Shown: piece after piece, positions 15,421 to 24,345 of the stretch
How the letters are laid out: every line of letters starts with the position of its first letter
Position numbering within the stretch: position 1 is the stretch's first letter
DNA from: Candidatus Bathyarchaeota archaeon
GTDB lineage: Archaea > Thermoproteota > Bathyarchaeia > Bathyarchaeales > Bathycorpusculaceae
Assembly: GCA_963827165.1 (NCBI GenBank)
Contig: CAWGZR010000009.1
Span: 263,156-327,155, forward strand
Length of the DNA: 64,000 bases
Direction: 5' to 3'
The notes under the pieces: generated by a model
What the model was told of the DNA's origin: nothing
The model's input: the letters and a program-made list of their open reading frames with translations, nothing else
Databases searched by the model: none
Position numbers and translations under genes: made by a program

Positions 15421-15536
15421 TTTTTTTGTTTTTTGACTTTTTGGTACGTTTTAATATGTTTTGCGAGACCAGTTGCAACCGATTCAAGCCCCAAACCAAA
15501 AAAGCAACCCAAAATACAAAGAACAAATCAGCTGGA
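15421..15536 (-). repeat. Dispersed leader + 10-bp array element, copy A
   Basis: The reverse complement of 15471-15524 matches 20163-20216 at 51/54 nt. It is followed on the minus strand by tcgcaaaaca/tattaaaacg/taccaaaaag/tcaaaaaaca. Confidence 0.9.
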
Positions 15537-15664
15537 TCTTCCAAAAAAATTGAGTATGATTCTCCCTTTAAAAAAATAGTCACCAATCGCTTTCTCGTGT
15601 GTTGAGTATATTAAAGATAAATATACTGGTAGTGCAATTTCGTATCCGTAAGGAGAAAATAAAG

Positions 15665-16087
15665 TTGTCTGTAGCACAAAGGAAGTATTTCAATGAAGTC
15701 GCATTACTTGCGGATAAAACAGTTTCTGTAGTTACTAATGACGGAAAAACATTCATCGGCACAGTCATCGGCATAAATCAGGACAATATGAGTCTCGTGT
15801 TGGCTGACGCGAGGGATGAGGCTGGAAAAACGCTTCACCGGCTTTTCCTGAATGGAAGCGTGGTTAATCAAATTGCAAGCGCGGAAAAACCCTTCGACCT
15901 CAAAGCCTTAGCTACAAGACTTGAAAAAGTCTTCCCAACTATGGTAAAGTTGTATGATGATAAGGGTTTCATCTGGGTCATGGATAAGGTGAAACTGACG
16001 GAAAAAGGCGTTGTTGAAGGTTCAGGTCCAGCCGCTGACCGAGTGCAGAAGGTTTACGACCTGTTCATGAGTGAAGTCAAACCCTAA
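15665..16087 (+). CDS. Lsm/SmAP3-type RNA-binding protein
   Basis: Sm fold (V.V.TNDGKTFIG...GIN...MSLVLADA) plus a SmAP3 C-terminal domain (V.EKGVVEGSGPAADRV). TTG at 15665 has an AAGGAG RBS. Confidence 0.88.
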   Translation: MSVAQRKYFNEVALLADKTVSVVTNDGKTFIGTVIGINQDNMSLVLADARDEAGKTLHRLFLNGSVVNQIASAEKPFDLKALATRLEKVFPTMVKLYDDKGFIWVMDKVKLTEKGVVEGSGPAADRVQKVYDLFMSEVKP

Positions 16088-16836
16088 ATAAACCAGCGCA
16101 GCTGCTCCTCTTCTTTCTTCTTTTCTTCTGTAATGCTTCGGATAATACCAAATGATTCTAAGATCTTTTTGATTTCGCCGCCGGTTTCATCCAGCCGGGA
16201 CAAATCGACGTCTATATTCAAGTATTTCCCAAGAGTGGTTAACGCGTAGCGTGCAGCGTTTATGTCTGGATCCATGCCGGGTGTGTCAACAAGTAGCGAG
16301 AATCCTTTCATATCCCTGATCCTCGCTAGTCCAACGGATAGCCCCGCGATGCCGAAAACGTGGCCGACCATTATTTTTGTTCCCAGATTGAGCGCTTCCT
16401 GCATCGTGTCTAAGTCTGTGGCGGTGCTGTATATTCCGGGTACTGGTTGAGTCTCATCTTTTTTGAAGCCGCCGATTGAAATTACGAAGCGGCAGCCAAA
16501 TTCTTGGGCTAAATCTAGCACTTTGCCGACGAGTTCATATTGCCCAATGGTCGTAAGCGCCTGCGTGTTACCGTACCAGATGATTAAGTCGCGTTCGCCC
16601 TCTCCCCGTTTGGCATAGTATAGTTCATTTGTGGGTGAGAGAGCTCTGCCGTCTCCAGTTGTCACGGCGAAATCTTGGAAGGATGAAGAAAATATTTGGA
16701 CGAATCGTTTAGCTTTAAGTTCTTTTATGAGGTGTAAAGCCGCTATGTTTGCGACGAATCCTATGCCGGGAAGTCCTTCGATAAGGATTGGGTCGTTTAG
16801 TTTTGGTTTTTCGTTGATGTCGATGGAGCAGACCAT
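16084..16836 (-). CDS. PAC2 family proteasome assembly chaperone
   Basis: LIEGLPGIGFVANIA, ISIGG and GIAGL; PD..AAR motif. Confidence 0.88.
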   Translation of the reverse strand: MVCSIDINEKPKLNDPILIEGLPGIGFVANIAALHLIKELKAKRFVQIFSSSFQDFAVTTGDGRALSPTNELYYAKRGEGERDLIIWYGNTQALTTIGQYELVGKVLDLAQEFGCRFVISIGGFKKDETQPVPGIYSTATDLDTMQEALNLGTKIMVGHVFGIAGLSVGLARIRDMKGFSLLVDTPGMDPDINAARYALTTLGKYLNIDVDLSRLDETGGEIKKILESFGIIRSITEEKKKEEEQLRWFI

Positions 16837-17071
16837 GGTTTACATCTCTTTTGTCAAGTATAGACAAGCTATTCGATATAAGGATGCTGACATTTCAGTT
16901 TAGGCGACATAGCGTTACCATGTTCATGGAAAAACATATTGAGTTCGCTCTCGACCTTGCCCAAAGTTTCATCTTCCCATGAGAAATCAACAGGTTTCCA
17001 TATGTGACATGACACGCCAAGGGTAAGAAAGGCATATAAGAGTTAAGAATGAAACGATAAAGAGACCAATC

Positions 17072-18334
17072 ATGGGTTCTCAGAAAACATCCCTAATCCG
17101 CATTGTTCTCCTAATGTTGTTAGTGTTTGCAGCTGTTTTTCCTGTTTTAACCGCTAAATCTGAGGCGCAGACGAACCAGAATTACTGGGTCACCGTGAAA
17201 CCGACAGGCGACTCCCAAATGTACACTTCGGTCGATAGGAACTGGACGTTGTCATTTGAGGCTGTTTGGAGTTACGGCAGCAATTCAGGTCAACCCATAA
17301 GCGATGCGGTGGTCTCAATAGAAGTTTTCGGGGCTTCAGAGGGGGCATTGGGCACTCTTGATTTGAATACGACTTCGGGATACTTTGTTTTCAATTATTC
17401 TTCATCAACGGCGGACAAAATAACTTTCACACCTACCCAACTGAAAACTCAGGACGGGGCAAAGTGGACGTCCGCCCTCGTAACAAATGACGGAGTGCAA
17501 GCTTACGGTTTACAATCAACGCCTGTTACGGTTTGGTGGGATACCTTCCAAGTGTCCTTGTTGAGCCAAGACACTGACAGCTCGAGCGCAGTTGCATTAT
17601 CAGTAAACATTACTTATCAACTGCTTCCGCAAGAAGGCTTAACCTTGCCTGCGGAGGACACGTACTCGAACCAAACGTTCCTGCCTAAAACCGTCATCGG
17701 CGCCAACGTAACCATTAACGGAGTTAACGCCCAAGAAACCGGATCAACAAGCGTTTACTCAGCGAAAACTTCCACAGTTTTCCCTACAGCGTACGTGCTA
17801 GTGAAGGTTTCGCAAAGCGGATGGACAACAACCAACACGGCTCTCAGTTTTGGGCAAAAAGCCAATGGAGTCTTTTGGAGTTACGCGGAAATAATCGCGC
17901 TGATTGCTGTTGCTGCCACATTGCTGCTGTATGTTATGTTGGCAAGAAAGCCTAGTCGATCTGCTTCAAGGGGAGCTATATTCTTGTTGATAGGCAGTGC
18001 CTTGTTGCTGGCTACCTCCGTGGTCAGCCTTTACTGGGGCGCGGTTGCGGTGGAGGCTTCGCTTCATGGGTTTAACTGGCTTATCTTGGCGGTCACGAGT
18101 CTTTGCGCCTTCGCTGTAGGTGCGTTGGGCGGAGTGATGTCTCTTAGGCGGAAGAACGAGGCGTTGGTTATTTTCGCAGTCTGTGTTCCGCTTATCGTTA
18201 ATCTTAGCATGGTGAGTTATGCGTTGGGTGCTTACTCTTTAGCGGTTCCGTGGATGTTCATTTTCGCGTCAACGATTACTTCGATAGCGAGTGGGTTGTT
18301 AATTGCTCATTTTGATGACCAATTCACCAAATAA
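17072..18334 (+). CDS. Hypothetical secreted/membrane protein
   Basis: Signal peptide, S/T-rich beta ectodomain and about 5 C-terminal TM helices. Confidence 0.75.
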   Translation: MGSQKTSLIRIVLLMLLVFAAVFPVLTAKSEAQTNQNYWVTVKPTGDSQMYTSVDRNWTLSFEAVWSYGSNSGQPISDAVVSIEVFGASEGALGTLDLNTTSGYFVFNYSSSTADKITFTPTQLKTQDGAKWTSALVTNDGVQAYGLQSTPVTVWWDTFQVSLLSQDTDSSSAVALSVNITYQLLPQEGLTLPAEDTYSNQTFLPKTVIGANVTINGVNAQETGSTSVYSAKTSTVFPTAYVLVKVSQSGWTTTNTALSFGQKANGVFWSYAEIIALIAVAATLLLYVMLARKPSRSASRGAIFLLIGSALLLATSVVSLYWGAVAVEASLHGFNWLILAVTSLCAFAVGALGGVMSLRRKNEALVIFAVCVPLIVNLSMVSYALGAYSLAVPWMFIFASTITSIASGLLIAHFDDQFTK

Positions 18335-18451
18335 CCCAACGACTCATAACATACCGAGTTGCCCTTTTTTCTGTCAAGCCAGCTGTGCCGGGTTTGAAGA
18401 CACCTAGTGTTTTTTTATAGGTGAGGCGTGATTCTTGTTTAGGTTTAAAAG

Positions 18452-20077
18452 TTGAGTTTCGAAATAAAACACAAAGACCTGCTGGGAAGAATAGGGAAGC
18501 TAAAGACGAAAACCGCAACGGTGGAGACTCCGCTTCTTTACCCTGTGATTAACCCAAGCATCCAGCTTGTCACACCTAAGAAACTCAAGGAAACCTTCGG
18601 GTTTGAAGCAGTTATAACTAACTCATACATTCTGCGGAAACGTTACGGCGATGTAGTTGTTGACCAAGGCTTGCACAAGTTTCTGGACTATGATGGTGCA
18701 GTAATGACCGATTCGGGAGCCTACCAGATTCTTGTATACGGCGAAGTTGAAGTCAATCAGAAACAAATCGTTGCTTACCAAGAAGGCATCGGCAGCGACA
18801 TAGCCACTATGCTGGATATACCGACAGGCTGGAAAATAACCAAGGAGCAAGCACAAGGTACTGTAGATGAAACATTGCAGAGAGCGAAGGACTTTTTCAA
18901 AGCCAAGACTCGCGACGACATTTTATGGGTTGGGCCAGTACAGGGCGGAAGGCATCTAGATTTAGTCGCGAAGTCAGCCAGTGAAATGGCCAAGCTTCCC
19001 TTCCAGATCCACGCGTTAGGAAGCCCCACAGAAGTAATGGAAAGCTACCGCTACGATGTCTTAGCAGACATGATCTTAACCGCGAAAAAAGGGTTACCCC
19101 TTGACCGCCCGCTGCATCTGTTCGGCGCTGGGCACCCAGCCATGTTCTCGTTGGCCGTGGCACTTGGATGTGACCTCTTCGATTCAGCAGCCTATGCTCT
19201 TTATGCCCGCGAGGATAGGTACATGACTGAAAACGGGACTAAACGCGTGGCTGAACTGGATTATTTCCCGTGCTGTTGCCCCCGATGTGCAGTGGAGACA
19301 CCCAAAAGCCTGATAAAGAAACCGAAAGAGGAACGTGAGGTTTTCTTAGCTGAACACAACCTCTATGTCTGTGCGGCTGAGATCAGGCGGATAAAGCAAG
19401 CCATCCGCGAAGGCAGGTTATGGGAACACACCGAAATGCGGGTCCACGGACACCCTGCTCTTCTGTCCGCCCTCAAAAAACTTCGCAGCCACGCTGACCT
19501 TCTGGAAACGTACAGTCCCACAGTGAAAAGCAGCGGATTCTTCTATTTCGACTCCGTCGGACTTGTGCGCCCCGAAATCACACATTACCGCAAACACTTA
19601 ACCGAACGCTATGACCCGCCCAAAGACGCCAAAGTCCTCTTTCTCGTACCCCAAACCAGAAACAAGCCGTTCCACAAGGCGCCTGAGTTCAAGAAAGTCA
19701 GGCAGCTTTTCAGAGTTCTTGGGGAAGATTTGACGCGGCAAATTCACGTTTGCGTTTACTCTGCCCCATTCGGCGTTGTTCCTCTGGAACTTGACGAGGT
19801 TTACCCGCTAAGTCAGCATGAAACAGCTTTGCCGCTTGACTTAGAAACCGTGACTTACGTGGCAGCCCAGGCAGTGGAATACGTCAAACGATCGAGCTAT
19901 GAAAGTGTCGTTTTGCTCAACGACCCTAAACTATGGCAGGACACCGTCAAAACCGCAGTCAATTTCGCTTGCGGCAACAAAGGTATACCATTTGAATCAG
20001 TTGAGGCAAACGCATCGGTCCCCAAAGAGGTTTTAAACCGATTAAGCAGTATTCTTCGAAAACAGTTAAGCGAATAA
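18452..20077 (+). CDS. tgtA: Archaeosine tRNA-guanine(15) transglycosylase
   Basis: MTDSGAYQ, LDIPTG, GPVQGG, HLFGAGHP, DLFDSAAY, Zn site CCCPRC...HNL; no PUA domain. Confidence 0.95.
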   Translation: MSFEIKHKDLLGRIGKLKTKTATVETPLLYPVINPSIQLVTPKKLKETFGFEAVITNSYILRKRYGDVVVDQGLHKFLDYDGAVMTDSGAYQILVYGEVEVNQKQIVAYQEGIGSDIATMLDIPTGWKITKEQAQGTVDETLQRAKDFFKAKTRDDILWVGPVQGGRHLDLVAKSASEMAKLPFQIHALGSPTEVMESYRYDVLADMILTAKKGLPLDRPLHLFGAGHPAMFSLAVALGCDLFDSAAYALYAREDRYMTENGTKRVAELDYFPCCCPRCAVETPKSLIKKPKEEREVFLAEHNLYVCAAEIRRIKQAIREGRLWEHTEMRVHGHPALLSALKKLRSHADLLETYSPTVKSSGFFYFDSVGLVRPEITHYRKHLTERYDPPKDAKVLFLVPQTRNKPFHKAPEFKKVRQLFRVLGEDLTRQIHVCVYSAPFGVVPLELDEVYPLSQHETALPLDLETVTYVAAQAVEYVKRSSYESVVLLNDPKLWQDTVKTAVNFACGNKGIPFESVEANASVPKEVLNRLSSILRKQLSE

Positions 20078-20151
20078 CCTTGGTTTAAGGTGGCTGAAAC
20101 CGAAGTCATCCTCTTTTTTTGTCGATCTTCCTTTCTCACATATTTTTGTAG

Positions 20152-20280
20152 TCCAGCGAATCGTTCTTTGTATTTTGGGTTGTTTTCTTGGTTTGGAGCT
20201 TGAATCGGTTGCAACTATTCGCCCAAAACATCTCAAAACATCTCGGAACATCCCAAAACATCTCAAAAAGTCAAAAAAGA
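20152..20280 (+). repeat. Dispersed leader + 10-bp array element, copy B
   Basis: Leader 20152-20216, then gcccaaaaca/tctcaaaaca/tctcggaaca/tcccaaaaca/tctcaaaaag/tcaaaaaaga. Confidence 0.9.
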
Positions 20281-20340
20281 CAACAAAATGAAACCGCAGA
20301 TTTGTGAGCGGTGGGTCCACATTTTTTGGGAGGAGAAATT

Positions 20341-20490
20341 TTTTGTTTGCGTTTTGAGTTGCTTTCTTGAAATAGAGTTTGGATTGGCTGCAACAGTTCT
20401 CTAAAAACATCTAAAAAGCTCTAGAAACATCTAGAAAAATCTATTTTCATCTAAAAACATCTAGAAACATCTAGAAACATCTGAAAAAGG
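20341..20490 (+). repeat. Dispersed leader + 10-bp array element, copy C
   Basis: Leader is colinear with copy B (39/53 by manual count), then nine 10-mers with consensus CTARAAACAT at 20401-20490. Confidence 0.88.
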
Positions 20491-20675
20491 CATTCTGCTC
20501 CTTTGGCAAGTAGATTACTGCGAAGTCTTCGCCGTTTCAATTGAGCCTTGACAAAGTACAATTGTATTTTTTGTAGCTCGCTTCGTGCAGTCTTGAGTTT
20601 TAAACTAATCTTTTTTAGCTTGCTCAACCTATTGAATCAGAACCGCAACCTTTAGCCCCAAAAGGAGATGTAAAC

Positions 20676-21275
20676 ATAGAATCTATCTACGCAGACTTAC
20701 ACATCCACACCATCTACTCCAGCGATTCTCTTCTACAACCTAAAACCCTTGTAGACATGCTCTCCGCGCACAGCTTCATCAAGGCTGCAGCAGTAACCGA
20801 CCATGACAGCGTGAGAGGCGTCAAGCTTACGATTGAGTTGGCAAAGGCTTACCCAGACATCCTAATAATTCCAGGAGTTGAAATCAGCACTGATCGCGGC
20901 GACGTTCTAGTTTTGGGAACGGAGGAGCTGCCGCCTAAACCCTGGAGCCCAGAATGCGTGGTTGATTATGCGAAGGGGGTGGGTGCGATTACGGTTGTGG
21001 CGCATCCTTTCCGCGAATACGGCATGGGTGATGTGGCGAGAAACTACAAGTTTGACGCTATTGAGGTTCTTAACGGGAACTCGTCAGCGAAGGCGAACAG
21101 TGAGGCTAAAGCGTTTGCGAAAAGCTTGGGTTTGCCGGGTACGGCGGGCAGCGACGCCCATCAAGTGTCAGAGCTTTTCAGCGTGAACGCAAAAATTGAT
21201 TGTGCACTAAATGTTGAATCTGTTTTGAAGGCACTCGAGAAGGGTTCCGTTTCGGCTCAAATAACAAAGGGATAA
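20676..21275 (+). CDS. PHP-domain phosphoesterase; probable ATA start
   Basis: The family's first motif DLHIHTIYSSD lies in frame upstream of the first ATG (20757). Also TDHD, PGVEIST, AHPFR and GSDAH. AAGGAG RBS sits before ATA at 20676. Confidence 0.88.
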   Translation: MESIYADLHIHTIYSSDSLLQPKTLVDMLSAHSFIKAAAVTDHDSVRGVKLTIELAKAYPDILIIPGVEISTDRGDVLVLGTEELPPKPWSPECVVDYAKGVGAITVVAHPFREYGMGDVARNYKFDAIEVLNGNSSAKANSEAKAFAKSLGLPGTAGSDAHQVSELFSVNAKIDCALNVESVLKALEKGSVSAQITKG

Positions 21276-21376
21276 ATGCCTTTGAGCATTTTTTTAGCTG
21301 GATTTTTTGAGGTTTAAAAGGAAACCTTATTCTGGGGGCAAGACTATTTGCACGATTTATTGGCGATTGAAAACAT

Positions 21377-22282
21377 ATGGGTAATAGCATGACTGAGCCG
21401 CAGCCGCTTAAAGAGCCGTCTAAGGGGCAGCCCAAGGAGCAGGATCGCTTCAAATTTGAAGTTGTTTACCTGATTCCGATACTAGCAAGCATAATATTCG
21501 GCCTAGCCTGCGCAAGCCTTCTTAAAACTCAGGCCCCAGCAACCATACCCGTTACCCCTCTTCCCCAAAACACTGCTTCGGGCTCCTTCGGCAACGCGTT
21601 TTACTTCGTCATTTTGGTGGCGGTCGCGGCAACGATATTTTATCTGTTGCTCAAACGTAGAAGCCGAAGAATCATCAAAGGCTTAATCGTTGTCGCCATG
21701 ACGACCGCGTCCCTCCTGCTATCTCTCGTCTACCTAGCTGCAGTCTTCTCTTATCTGCCAAGCAGCTATGGGATCTTATGGATTCCGCTATCCATAGCCA
21801 TCACGGCAGCGTTTGACTACGCCGTTTTCCGCCTAGGCAGCATCGCTCGAAACGTCGCAGTCATCGGCATCGGCGGCGCACTTGGGATGTTCTTCGGTTT
21901 TGAAATCCAGCTATGGACAGCGGTGCTGATCCTAGTTTTCCTCGCGGTTTATGATATTTTCGCGGTTTATCGGGGTCCAGTCGGCAAAATTGCTCAGTCA
22001 GCCGGCGGGCTCGAGGACTTGCAGGGTTTAAGCTACGACTTCCGCGACATCCAAATGGGGCTGGGCGATTTGGTTTTCTACTCGATGCTGGTTGGAACCA
22101 TGTTCTTCAGCTTCTCAAGCATATTGCCCTGCCTCGTTTCGTTAGTGGGCATAATAGCAGGCTCAATCGTCACGTTCTTCATTCTTGAACATAAAGGAAT
22201 CTTTCCAGGTCTACCCTTCCCAATCATGCTCGGTTTAGCGGGCGGCTTAATTATGGGGCTCGTGATTCTGCCACTTCTTTAG
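21377..22282 (+). CDS. Presenilin-like GxGD intramembrane aspartyl protease
   Basis: Multi-TM protein with YD (AVYDIFAV), GLGD and PGLP (PAL-equivalent) motifs. Confidence 0.9.
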   Translation: MGNSMTEPQPLKEPSKGQPKEQDRFKFEVVYLIPILASIIFGLACASLLKTQAPATIPVTPLPQNTASGSFGNAFYFVILVAVAATIFYLLLKRRSRRIIKGLIVVAMTTASLLLSLVYLAAVFSYLPSSYGILWIPLSIAITAAFDYAVFRLGSIARNVAVIGIGGALGMFFGFEIQLWTAVLILVFLAVYDIFAVYRGPVGKIAQSAGGLEDLQGLSYDFRDIQMGLGDLVFYSMLVGTMFFSFSSILPCLVSLVGIIAGSIVTFFILEHKGIFPGLPFPIMLGLAGGLIMGLVILPLL

Positions 22283-22320
22283 GGGATTCTCGATCACATG
22301 CTTTTCGCTTTGGCAGTTTT

Positions 22321-22480
22321 TTTGTTGTTTGTTTCTTGGGTTGCTTTCTTGGTTTAGGGCTTGAAATGTCTGCAGGTTGCGTCAATTAACGTCAACTAAA
22401 GTCAACTGTCGTCTGCAAAAGTCAACCATAGTCAATAGAAGTCTACTAAAGTCAACTAACGTCAACAAAAGTCAACAAGC
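22321..22480 (+). repeat. Dispersed leader + 10-bp array element, copy D
   Basis: Leader is 39/50 identical to copy B, then ten 10-mers with consensus GTCAACWAAA at 22381-22480. Confidence 0.88.
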
Positions 22481-23139
22481 GACCCCGTCACTCAACGTAC
22501 GGTTCAAATATTGTAACGAAAATAAGCATCGAAGAAAAGCTGATTATTGTCCGCGTCTTTTGCCTCATGCATCTCGTTGCGCTCTGGTGTCTTTTGGTTT
22601 GGAAATTGAGGCATTTTCAGGTTGGGTCCCTAATAGTCAATAATTAGTCAAAAACGGCAAGAGGAAGCTCAATTAAGGTTAGTTAGCGTGCTTCCGTGTT
22701 TTTCTAGCGGGAATCTTTGCCGGTTTTGAAGTGAACTACCAATTCATAAAATCTAATTAGTCAAAACTTCAAAATGACAATCATGTGCAATTTGCTAAAT
22801 TACCAAACTCAAGATTTGGAAGAAAATGCTCAGCAAAGAAAAAACAAAATCAAAAAAACCGATGCCGAAACACTAGAAATAATCGTTCCTGCCGCAATCT
22901 CGTTGTGCTGCAAATAAATCAAATGCTTCATTCAAAACCCGTAAACAAGCAGGCAATGTTGACACAGAAAAACTTCAAGCCCCTCGAACTCCTGTAAAAT
23001 CCCAAAATCGAAGAAAAAGGGCCGACTCACATAGCGATCAATCTGTCGAAGGAAAACGAGTCGGCAAAGATCAATTAGTGATGGTGGATGGTAAAAAATA
23101 AAATAGCATTGCCCGATCAAAACGCAAAGTCGGCGCAAA

Positions 23140-24345
23140 GTGCTTAGAGATGGGGGAATCAAAAGGACATACTCGCTATCCAATAGCAGATGCAATGAAA
23201 ATTACAAACCAATCACCAGCCAAGCCAGTTTTGGGAGACGACGGTGTCTATCTGCAATTTTTGCCATATTTGTTGTGGTTACTGCAAGCTTCTGCGCTCT
23301 GCATGAGATGCCGCGAGAGACTTACGCTCAGCCGCCTGTATCGCCGCAAATCCAATTCCCTCCGGCAGCATCCATTCAGCTGAGCGTCCCCTTCTGTGAC
23401 CAAGACAAATCCGTAAACAGTCATTATAATTTGGCGGGTATATGCTGGGATACATCGGCAGAAATGATTCTTAATTACTGGCACAACCAGGGATATTTAG
23501 CATCTGTTCCATCGCAAACTGAAATATATTCAGACACAATGTCAAACAGCTCAGACGGCAACCTAAACAACGCCTTAGCATCTTTAGGCTTCTACTCTGC
23601 AGGGTTCTACCCAATGCAGACGTTTTATGCAAGCTACAGCAATTATCAGCAAACAAACAACGCGAACAACGCAAGCCAAATGATATACACTGCACAGGTC
23701 GCTTTGTCGTTGGGTGTGCCCCTTGAAGCCTCCGTGGAAACCCAGCCTTACCCGCAAGCAAATTCGAGCACCGGCGGAATCCTTTGCGATTCCAGAGGAC
23801 AAGACCACGCAATAGTCATAACAGGCTACAATCAAACAGGCTTTATATTCAACTCTGCAACAAACGAGCAATCCAATCCCCAATTTGTAAGTGACAACAG
23901 TCTGAATACCTATGTGCAAGATGGACGAGTGGTCAACGGTTATCGGCTCTATTGCCAATACTCAGAGTTCATAAACGCCTTCAGCAACGAATCATGGAGC
24001 TTCACAGCCATATTCCCCTTAAATTATGCGCCAGTAATGCGGCAGCAAATCGTACACCTCGTCGATGAAAACAATCAGCCAATATCAGGAATGTTGGTGT
24101 CGTCGCCATTGAGCACAGCGAGAACCGACTCAGACGGGTATGCCACACTAACAATTACATATTTGGGGACACCCATAACGCTCGGTTATAACATGCAAAC
24201 TAACGCATACGATAACTTCTGCGGACATTATTACGACACTCGACAGGTCGGCCATTGCTCCAGCGGAGACTACGGCATTTACATGCTTTACCCGACAACG
24301 GCAAATTGGCAAGCGACGACAAACAGAAAGATACAATACACTTAG
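23140..24345 (+). CDS. Secreted C39-like (papain-fold) cysteine peptidase
   Basis: VPFCDQ, CWDTSAEMILNYW (catalytic Cys) and DHAIVITGY (His); N-terminal TM segment; C-terminal prealbumin-like DENNQPISG..TDSDGYA. Start uncertain. Confidence 0.7.
   Translation: MLRDGGIKRTYSLSNSRCNENYKPITSQASFGRRRCLSAIFAIFVVVTASFCALHEMPRETYAQPPVSPQIQFPPAASIQLSVPFCDQDKSVNSHYNLAGICWDTSAEMILNYWHNQGYLASVPSQTEIYSDTMSNSSDGNLNNALASLGFYSAGFYPMQTFYASYSNYQQTNNANNASQMIYTAQVALSLGVPLEASVETQPYPQANSSTGGILCDSRGQDHAIVITGYNQTGFIFNSATNEQSNPQFVSDNSLNTYVQDGRVVNGYRLYCQYSEFINAFSNESWSFTAIFPLNYAPVMRQQIVHLVDENNQPISGMLVSSPLSTARTDSDGYATLTITYLGTPITLGYNMQTNAYDNFCGHYYDTRQVGHCSSGDYGIYMLYPTTANWQATTNRKIQYT

Follow-up and report, generated by a model that had tools for sequence, protein, structure and literature searches.

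A dispersed leader with a phased array of four-base boxes in a Bathyarchaeota genome: probable gene-less members of a module family linked to a tandem-AbrB protein

The locus

The window analysed here is a stretch of 64,000 nucleotides from a Candidatus Bathyarchaeota archaeon (assembly GCA_963827165.1, contig CAWGZR010000009.1, positions 263,156 to 327,155, forward strand); its genes include some that can be read, by their sequences, as tgtA, PHP, presenilin-like and Lsm genes. Going by the names of homologs, too, the organism belongs among the Bathyarchaeia. Four copies of a leader, each followed by a box array of 10-base period, lie between its genes (Table 1). A first-pass annotation made from the sequence alone had noted these four leaders, and a profile finds each of them in place (E 5.6e-15 to 7.5e-12). 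Its figure of 51 identical bases in 54 for leaders A and B is right if the first base is excluded (51 of 55 with it), and so are its nine units for array C and ten for array D; array A has three good units and then an A-run where about four units had been claimed, and array B has five instead of six. A degenerate fifth copy had been suspected near 22585-22655: a half-leader with two decayed units does lie there, but its leader half (22592-22628) scores weakly, at E 0.074 with a broad leader model and E 4 with the model of this genome, and going by the letters a genuine decayed copy is plausible but weak.

Table 1. Leaders, box arrays and the associated tail in the window
Feature	Position	Strand	Remarks
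Leader A	15471..15531	-	profile match, E 5.6e-15
Box array A	15425..15470	-	CATA/CGTA/AGTC boxes; 3 good units, then an A-run
Leader B	20156..20216	+	profile match, E 1.1e-13
Box array B	20217..20272	+	5 units, CATC boxes, final box AGTC
Type-specific tail between module B and leader C	20273..20334	+	common to other loci of the same type
Leader C, second module of a two-module stack	20335..20395	+	profile match, E 2e-14
Box array C	20396..20491	+	9 units, TARAAA-CATC type
Leader D	22317..22377	+	profile match, E 7.5e-12; 35 bases past the stop of the upstream gene
Box array D	22378..22483	+	10 units, AGTC/CGTC boxes
Decayed module E (weak)	22592..22649	+	half-leader (3' half), followed by two units of TAGTC type

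The copies in the window are gene-less. The tail of module B is 83% identical over 199 bases to sequence at C5:115k of the same genome, and 79-83% identical to C14:27k and C5:337k. Arrays A and D are of the same types as arrays that elsewhere in this genome (G000) precede a gene for a tandem-AbrB protein, at C10:65.8k and C7:3043, respectively.

A genome-wide family

The genome-wide profile search that the first-pass annotation proposed yields 99 leaders at E<0.1, of which 91 reach E<1e-3, none in the reversed genome, and a widespread association with arrays; the number is a minimum, a decayed module at C10:116.8k having escaped the profile. The leaders occupy 66 loci, 43 of them single, 15 double, 7 triple and one with five leaders, and the leaders stacked within a locus are never of mixed strand. 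As had been said of the window copies, the loci are intergenic, all 66 of them.

Every array starts in one register, six bases past the leader, and its unit consists of six variable bases and a 4-base box, most commonly AGTC or CGTC, with CATC, TCTC, AAGC, TGAC, CGTA and ATAC/AGAC as variants. Four or more in-register units follow 75 of the 99 leaders, compared with 3.9% of shuffled downstream sequence, which bears out the claim of a 10-bp array in phase behind the leader. The further claim, that the unit differs from copy to copy and is homogenised within each, needs amending: about a dozen array types recur in the genome, near-identical arrays stand at distant loci, and just the last three or four bases of the unit are well homogenised (identity within arrays rises from 0.51-0.60 at unit positions 1-3 to 0.79-0.88 at positions 8-10). 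AGTC is often retained in the end units.

The unit of transfer is larger than the array. Arrays together with their tails are common to distant loci at 93-96% identity; when modules are aligned on their own leaders, the shared sequence starts near the left edge of the leader (-43 to +18) and ends raggedly on the right, in one shared copy 10 codons into a gene. Chimeric stacked loci change partner inside the next leader. Because types recur with their tails at distant loci, the arrays are carried about as units of DNA rather than made anew at every locus.

The arrays are not of the CRISPR kind, as had been stated: identical repeats with unique spacers are absent from them. A structured RNA with a repetitive tail, which had been offered as one option, fails: in 40 copies of this genome, folded on either strand with RNA as well as DNA parameters, leader and array do no better than shuffled sequence (mean z -0.28 to +0.51), and an Rfam scan matches none of the elements, its one sub-threshold match lying inside a gene.

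The linked protein

All seven paralogs of a 92-aa tandem-AbrB protein in the genome (5 intact, 2 broken) are encoded 69-190 bases behind a leader, after the array and on the same strand. The protein has 261 homologs at E<=0.001. No Pfam family scores above its cut-off, MraZ (PF02381) reaching E 0.13 at best (12.7 bits, where 23 are required). Structure prediction (pLDDT 91.5) gives what is predicted to be a single-chain duplicated AbrB, or swapped-hairpin, fold; in a Foldseek search with this model, PHS018 comes first (E 2.7e-5, TM 0.75), and an MraZ-promoter complex next (E 6.3e-3).

The association extends to relatives. Among 64 gene loci from GTDB genomes, 37 match a leader model trained on this genome alone; a broader model matches at 125 of 128 gene loci, a figure that is partly circular, 42 of those loci having been used in training. 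Ten or more matches to the leader core are found in 36 of 120 genomes of the genus, all 36 of which encode the tandem-AbrB protein, and in none of the 47 that do not, with the caveat that kin are not independent. A class-wide draw finds the protein in 10 of 151 genomes, and, judged by eye, the leader of most distant members contains a TATA sequence and comes with a few boxes in phase. A TATA-like hexamer is sparse in the expected slot, being present in 45 of 125 gene-bearing leaders and in only 5 of the 99 leaders of this genome; a promoter role is therefore uncertain and most orphan copies are probably silent. Several array types, B and C among them, are without a matching gene in this assembly, which is 94.5% complete.

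Residues and boxes

Do different variants of the protein go with different boxes? There are 84 protein-array pairs with at least four boxes, and among 920 associations between protein columns and bases the five strongest all fall within the two hairpin tips (shuffles that ignore kinship). Dropping three register-shifted rows leaves 81 pairs. In these, the box has C10 in 50 of the 64 cases where residue 18 is basic and in 0 of the 17 where it is not; G8 in 77 of the 78 where model column 62 is arginine and in 0 of the 3 where it is another residue; A7 in 24 of the 25 with Glu14; and T7 in 9 of the 10 with Arg or Lys14. Such a pattern would be generated by a pseudo-twofold protein that reads a G-N-C core from both strands. 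A kinship-controlled test is underpowered, providing just 1-4 independent pairs (p 0.25-1; 7 of 78 tree branches are well supported), so co-inheritance, rather than recognition, may be the source of the covariation. The first-pass annotation had mentioned a protein track on one face of the helix as a minor option; it has become the leading one, favoured by the MraZ-like 4+6 geometry, the linked tandem-AbrB gene and the residue-base covariation.

Orthologous sites in relatives

For comparison, 90 loci were fetched from three close relatives, which are not independent of one another (30 of 42, 30 of 45 and 30 of 33 matches). Of the 76 that could be placed, 23 coincide with a locus of this genome, compared with about 5% expected (66 of 1400 intergenic gaps); 21 of these 23 have the same orientation, and only 2 of the 21 the same box type. 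Most of the sites of one relative, G073, are empty here. At site A, the leader core of G109 and G121 (L356, L424) is the same and points the same way as here but belongs to another module family. No element stands at the B/C site in L117, L118, L123 and L126; L120 has the flank and leader of site B but a TCTC array from the last bases of the leader onward. Site D is filled in G013 (with another unit), in G073 and L120 (with the same box type) and in G121 (with another family), is occupied on the opposite strand in L118, and stands empty in both G001 and G002. Two other module families surround the core in G109 and G121: the first has units of about 11 bases, and the second ends in an 18-base palindrome. 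The motifs of these families, absent from this genome, turn up in 10 and in 2 of 120 genomes. The repeat family may turn over wholesale around a conserved core. Often the core stays and its flanks change, a pattern that speaks for exchange at the leader; fresh insertion also occurs, as the reversed site D of L118 and the sites of G073 that are empty here indicate.

Helicase and cassette islands

In another branch of the genus, 8 of 30 loci of a PrimPol-D5 helicase gene have a leader whose start lies at most about 45 bases from the stop codon of the gene; the helicase combines D5_N and DUF5906 domains with a Prim-Pol-like N-terminus, and its gene carries an inverted-repeat cluster of its own near the 3' end. 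Several other helicase loci continue into a zinc-ribbon ORF, which can be read as a candidate integrase by its likeness to the PF00589 genes of this genome. Around this gene there are also islands in which 3' fragments of the helicase gene are repeated, each followed by a leader: within six island stretches all 26 leaders are co-oriented, and between them lie gene fragments, two-gene units and toxin-antitoxin genes. This arrangement of direct repeats is confined to the relatives and does not occur in the present genome. Among 46 ORFs picked from the 93 in the islands there are 12 PIN proteins, and the rest include ParE, HepT, nucleotidyltransferase and antitoxin families; no PF00589 match is among these 46. 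One cassette is common to two genomes, where its neighbours differ. Island proteins searched by sequence against PHROGs and the PDB gave nothing informative. (A technical note: what had been suspected to be tRNA fragments in the islands are decayed gene starts.)

This genome has no helicase fragments, and its one helicase homolog (43% identical) has no leader behind it. Toxin genes are not enriched near its leaders: 5 of 30 PIN genes lie within 5 kb, compared with 19% at random. In view of both absences, the helicase link may be one episode in the history of the module. Members of the family in other families and orders stand between ordinary host genes, with no helicase gene recognised, by eye, in 1.5-kb flanks.

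How the module may work and spread

The window copies are probably gene-less members of a family of modules, their boxes a likely binding track for the tandem-AbrB protein and the modules themselves likely to be exchanged and stacked at the leader. The parts of this proposal are not equally secure. That the boxes are bound by the tandem-AbrB protein is very probable. The 92-residue protein is predicted to sit on them at one molecule per helical turn, with two pseudo-symmetric hairpin tips (Arg18 and Arg61, together with residues 14 and 16) contacting the G-N-C core from both strands, and each protein variant would be likely to read its own box. The complete unit would comprise leader, array and gene; like that of MraZ, it is likely to be a promoter whose operator serves autorepression, the promoter role being favoured on balance, with little to spare. 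Were the specificity of the protein to change, a new box could spread through the array by slippage or unequal exchange, end units keeping the old box while the array is converted. Recombination at the leader would swap and stack modules, and DNA exchange centred on the leader is a reasonably probable means of spread. Most orphan copies are probably passengers and probably silent.

What might do the exchanging? No recombinase tracks the element in this genome, where tyrosine recombinases are not linked to leaders, and no recombinase family recurs in the 64 gene loci. One leader has an integrase gene 0.6 kb away, but this belongs to a separate element on the far side of a tRNA gene. Viral contigs yield one match to the gene, at a contig edge, and none with a second alignment.

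Copying could be driven by a replicon instead: the leader would be the unwinding region and the boxes the iterons of a PrimPol-D5 helicase replicon, for which the tandem-AbrB protein would serve as origin adaptor, and one-way re-replication from the leader would throw off fragments fixed at the left and ragged at the right, which reinsert; box types would then be incompatibility groups. The nearness of leader and helicase stop at those 8 of 30 loci, the domain make-up of the helicase and its repeated 3' fragments in front of island leaders all suit this account; but the helicase has its own inverted repeats, fragments and leader-linked homolog are missing from this genome, members in other families and orders sit amid host genes, and viral contigs contain 0 matches to the leader pattern, so that it must be rated improbable. 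Might the orphan arrays be landing pads kept by the host, serving as chromatin, insulator or decoy sites for the paralogs or for histones? Most of them hold a strict 10-base phase without indels, sites persist between species, and adjacent modules of a stack never share a type (0 of 33, with 2.8 expected, P about 0.05, types having been assigned by hand). Against this, orientation to the flanking genes is random (18/17/16/15 over the 66 loci), many copies are truncated or decayed, occupancy and module family vary among close relatives, and many complete genomes of the genus do without the family altogether; we consider host maintenance hardly probable.

It is distinctly improbable that the element is a neutral MITE-like repeat with an internal minisatellite, its gene a passenger and its arrays drifting by slippage only. 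Intergenic dispersal, subfamilies and the older box in end units are what such a repeat would have, and one of nine empty/filled pairs (L369) has an imperfect 11-base direct repeat, most of the others being too diverged; but conservation within the unit is uneven, tip residues covary with bases, and direct repeats flank the loci in no clear excess over controls (10 of 66 compared with 18 of 200). As the first-pass annotation had also held, this is no obvious MITE: neither terminal inverted repeats nor a defined second end was found, right ends being ragged and without a common motif behind 75 genes. That annotation had preferred a leader that marks a site of local repeat synthesis, an enzyme adding templated units there. 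A fixed register, a strict period and new types at orthologous sites are what this would produce; yet types recur with their tails at distant loci, arrays moving whole, even with gene fragments, variation is concentrated in the spacer bases, the element has no fold signal, and no reverse transcriptase is linked to it (the sole one in the genome is about 21 kb from any leader, and none recurs in the 64 gene loci). Local synthesis is disfavoured, and very improbable.

A bolder extension of leader-centred exchange is unlikely, if less so than those alternatives: the leader may be the crossover platform of an integrase-free cassette system, which in one branch strings toxin-antitoxin pairs behind a PrimPol-helicase gene and here sets in place and exchanges a library of operator arrays that differ in specificity. 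A protein family that diversifies fast would read these arrays by a simple residue-to-base code, and the library may be a decoy bank against incoming elements of each specificity.

Relation to known systems

No description of this element was found in the literature as covered by listings and abstracts (subscription papers and supplements being outside that scope). The nearest likeness is MraZ, whose boxes at the bacterial dcw promoter, 4 bases each and spaced by 6, lie immediately before the gene that encodes it and are read by basic hairpin residues (PMC12957436, in part). A single-chain double AbrB fold, predicted here, box geometry and placement, and hairpin tips, which here are the site of covariation, are held in common with that account of MraZ (same source, in part). 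The differences are several: the present protein has 92 aa and approaches the Pfam MraZ family no closer than E 0.13; no dcw or cell-division cluster was found beside its gene, whose neighbours vary; a genome may have up to 16 tandem-AbrB matches with differing boxes, and an array up to about 12 boxes; and the family, with its about 90 gene-less copies, is sporadic and mobile. PHS018 of Pyrococcus horikoshii (PDB 2GLW) has the same length and fold (TM 0.75, 22% identity); it is uncharacterised, and in the portion of PMC4333400 that was consulted its DNA binding is only predicted and no box array is reported.

The module's manner of dispersal invites other comparisons. Putative mobile promoters, Correia elements and REPINs are likewise non-coding, intergenic, multi-copy, promoter-like, modular and detached from an original gene (PMC3575422, in part). 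In contrast to these, and to BOX repeats, the present family has no inverted repeats or hairpin, is linked to a cognate protein family whose code changes, and shows no bias toward places upstream of co-oriented genes. Dispersed repeats of the BOX type offer the same likeness as the other three. The module, then, works like MraZ and its operator without being a member of that family, and its spread resembles that of a mobile promoter, except that neither defined ends nor a linked enzyme were found.

The islands of some relatives resemble integrons and CALINs in that units of one or two genes, many of them toxin-antitoxin pairs, are set apart by direct-repeat sites (bioRxiv 10.1101/2022.02.06.479319, in part). 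They differ from that partial account in that no IntI was recognised near the arrays, the linked enzyme being a primase-helicase, and in that leader and array, unlike attC, form no hairpin (40 copies of this genome folded). In one subgroup, leader and AbrB gene stand behind the helicase, where other members carry the zinc-ribbon ORF (the candidate integrase), an arrangement that separates the subgroup from pRN1/pTN2-like replicons and is absent from this genome. Archaeal replicons of that type, with their PrimPol-superfamily-3 helicases, use the same kind of replication protein as lies upstream of the leader in this subgroup. Retron- and DRT-like systems, in which repeats are templated by a reverse transcriptase, have a linked reverse transcriptase and a structured template RNA; the element has neither a linked reverse transcriptase nor a fold signal.

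With more than 80 naturally occurring protein-site pairs for one 92-residue DNA-binding fold, the family makes a recognition code for AbrB-type proteins directly testable; such a code could yield small orthogonal repressors. It also assigns a likely site to the uncharacterised fold of PHS018. The toxin-antitoxin cassettes that leaders separate in relatives, with no integrase recognised, would represent a hitherto unknown route of gene stacking in archaea.

Related sequences in other genomes

The leader core is common to two further dispersed families (L337-L486, in G109, G121, G071, G088, G123 and other relatives), the first built of GCGACTT-type units of about 11 bases each and the second marked by a C-rich repeat upstream together with an 18-base palindrome; a cognate gene was sought beside 49 copies of the former and 13 of the latter, and none was found. 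In G215, a genome of another order, a distant tandem-AbrB homolog (L317) has six 10-base units upstream of it that are nearly perfect but carry another core; no recognisable leader precedes this gene.

Leaders also lie between toxin-antitoxin pairs downstream of the PrimPol-D5 helicase gene (L218-L229, in G110, G115, G118, G125 and G010), and these islands contain repeated 3' fragments of that helicase gene. At locus L081, a 1.54-kb unit is tandemly repeated.

Surroundings of the modules and elements elsewhere in the genome

The gene junction that houses modules B and C carries unrelated insertions of 0.1-2.1 kb, all without the leader, at four relatives' loci (L122, L124, L126, L127). The 401-aa ORF gave no match in a PHROG search and is missing from the corresponding place in G013, G001, G002, L117 and L118.

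Features of the window and of the genome studied (G000)
Feature	Location	Remarks
Gene junction	window 20078-20680	site of modules B and C
401-aa ORF	window 23140-24345	between module E (decayed copy) and next conserved gene
Split reverse transcriptase	C3:147878-148800	transposase remnants on either side
tRNA-adjoining element	C10:90263-95100	primase/helicase-like and tyrosine-recombinase-like ORFs
tRNA-adjoining element	C10:392-397k	primase/helicase-like and tyrosine-recombinase-like ORFs
tRNA-adjoining element	C5:314.7-319k	primase/helicase-like and tyrosine-recombinase-like ORFs; frameshifted

The split reverse transcriptase we take, by its motifs, to be group II intron-like. Several clusters of small ORFs that are almost identical to one another, some of them neighboured by what are presumably terminase- and capsid-like genes, occur on contigs C5, C9, C10, C11, C12 and C13 and suggest that the genome holds a number of related proviral remnants. 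Three elements adjoin tRNA genes (see table). Genome-wide, 6 of the 36 tRNA genes lie less than 1 kb from a leader, vs 4% of random positions, a comparison uncontrolled for intergenic bias.
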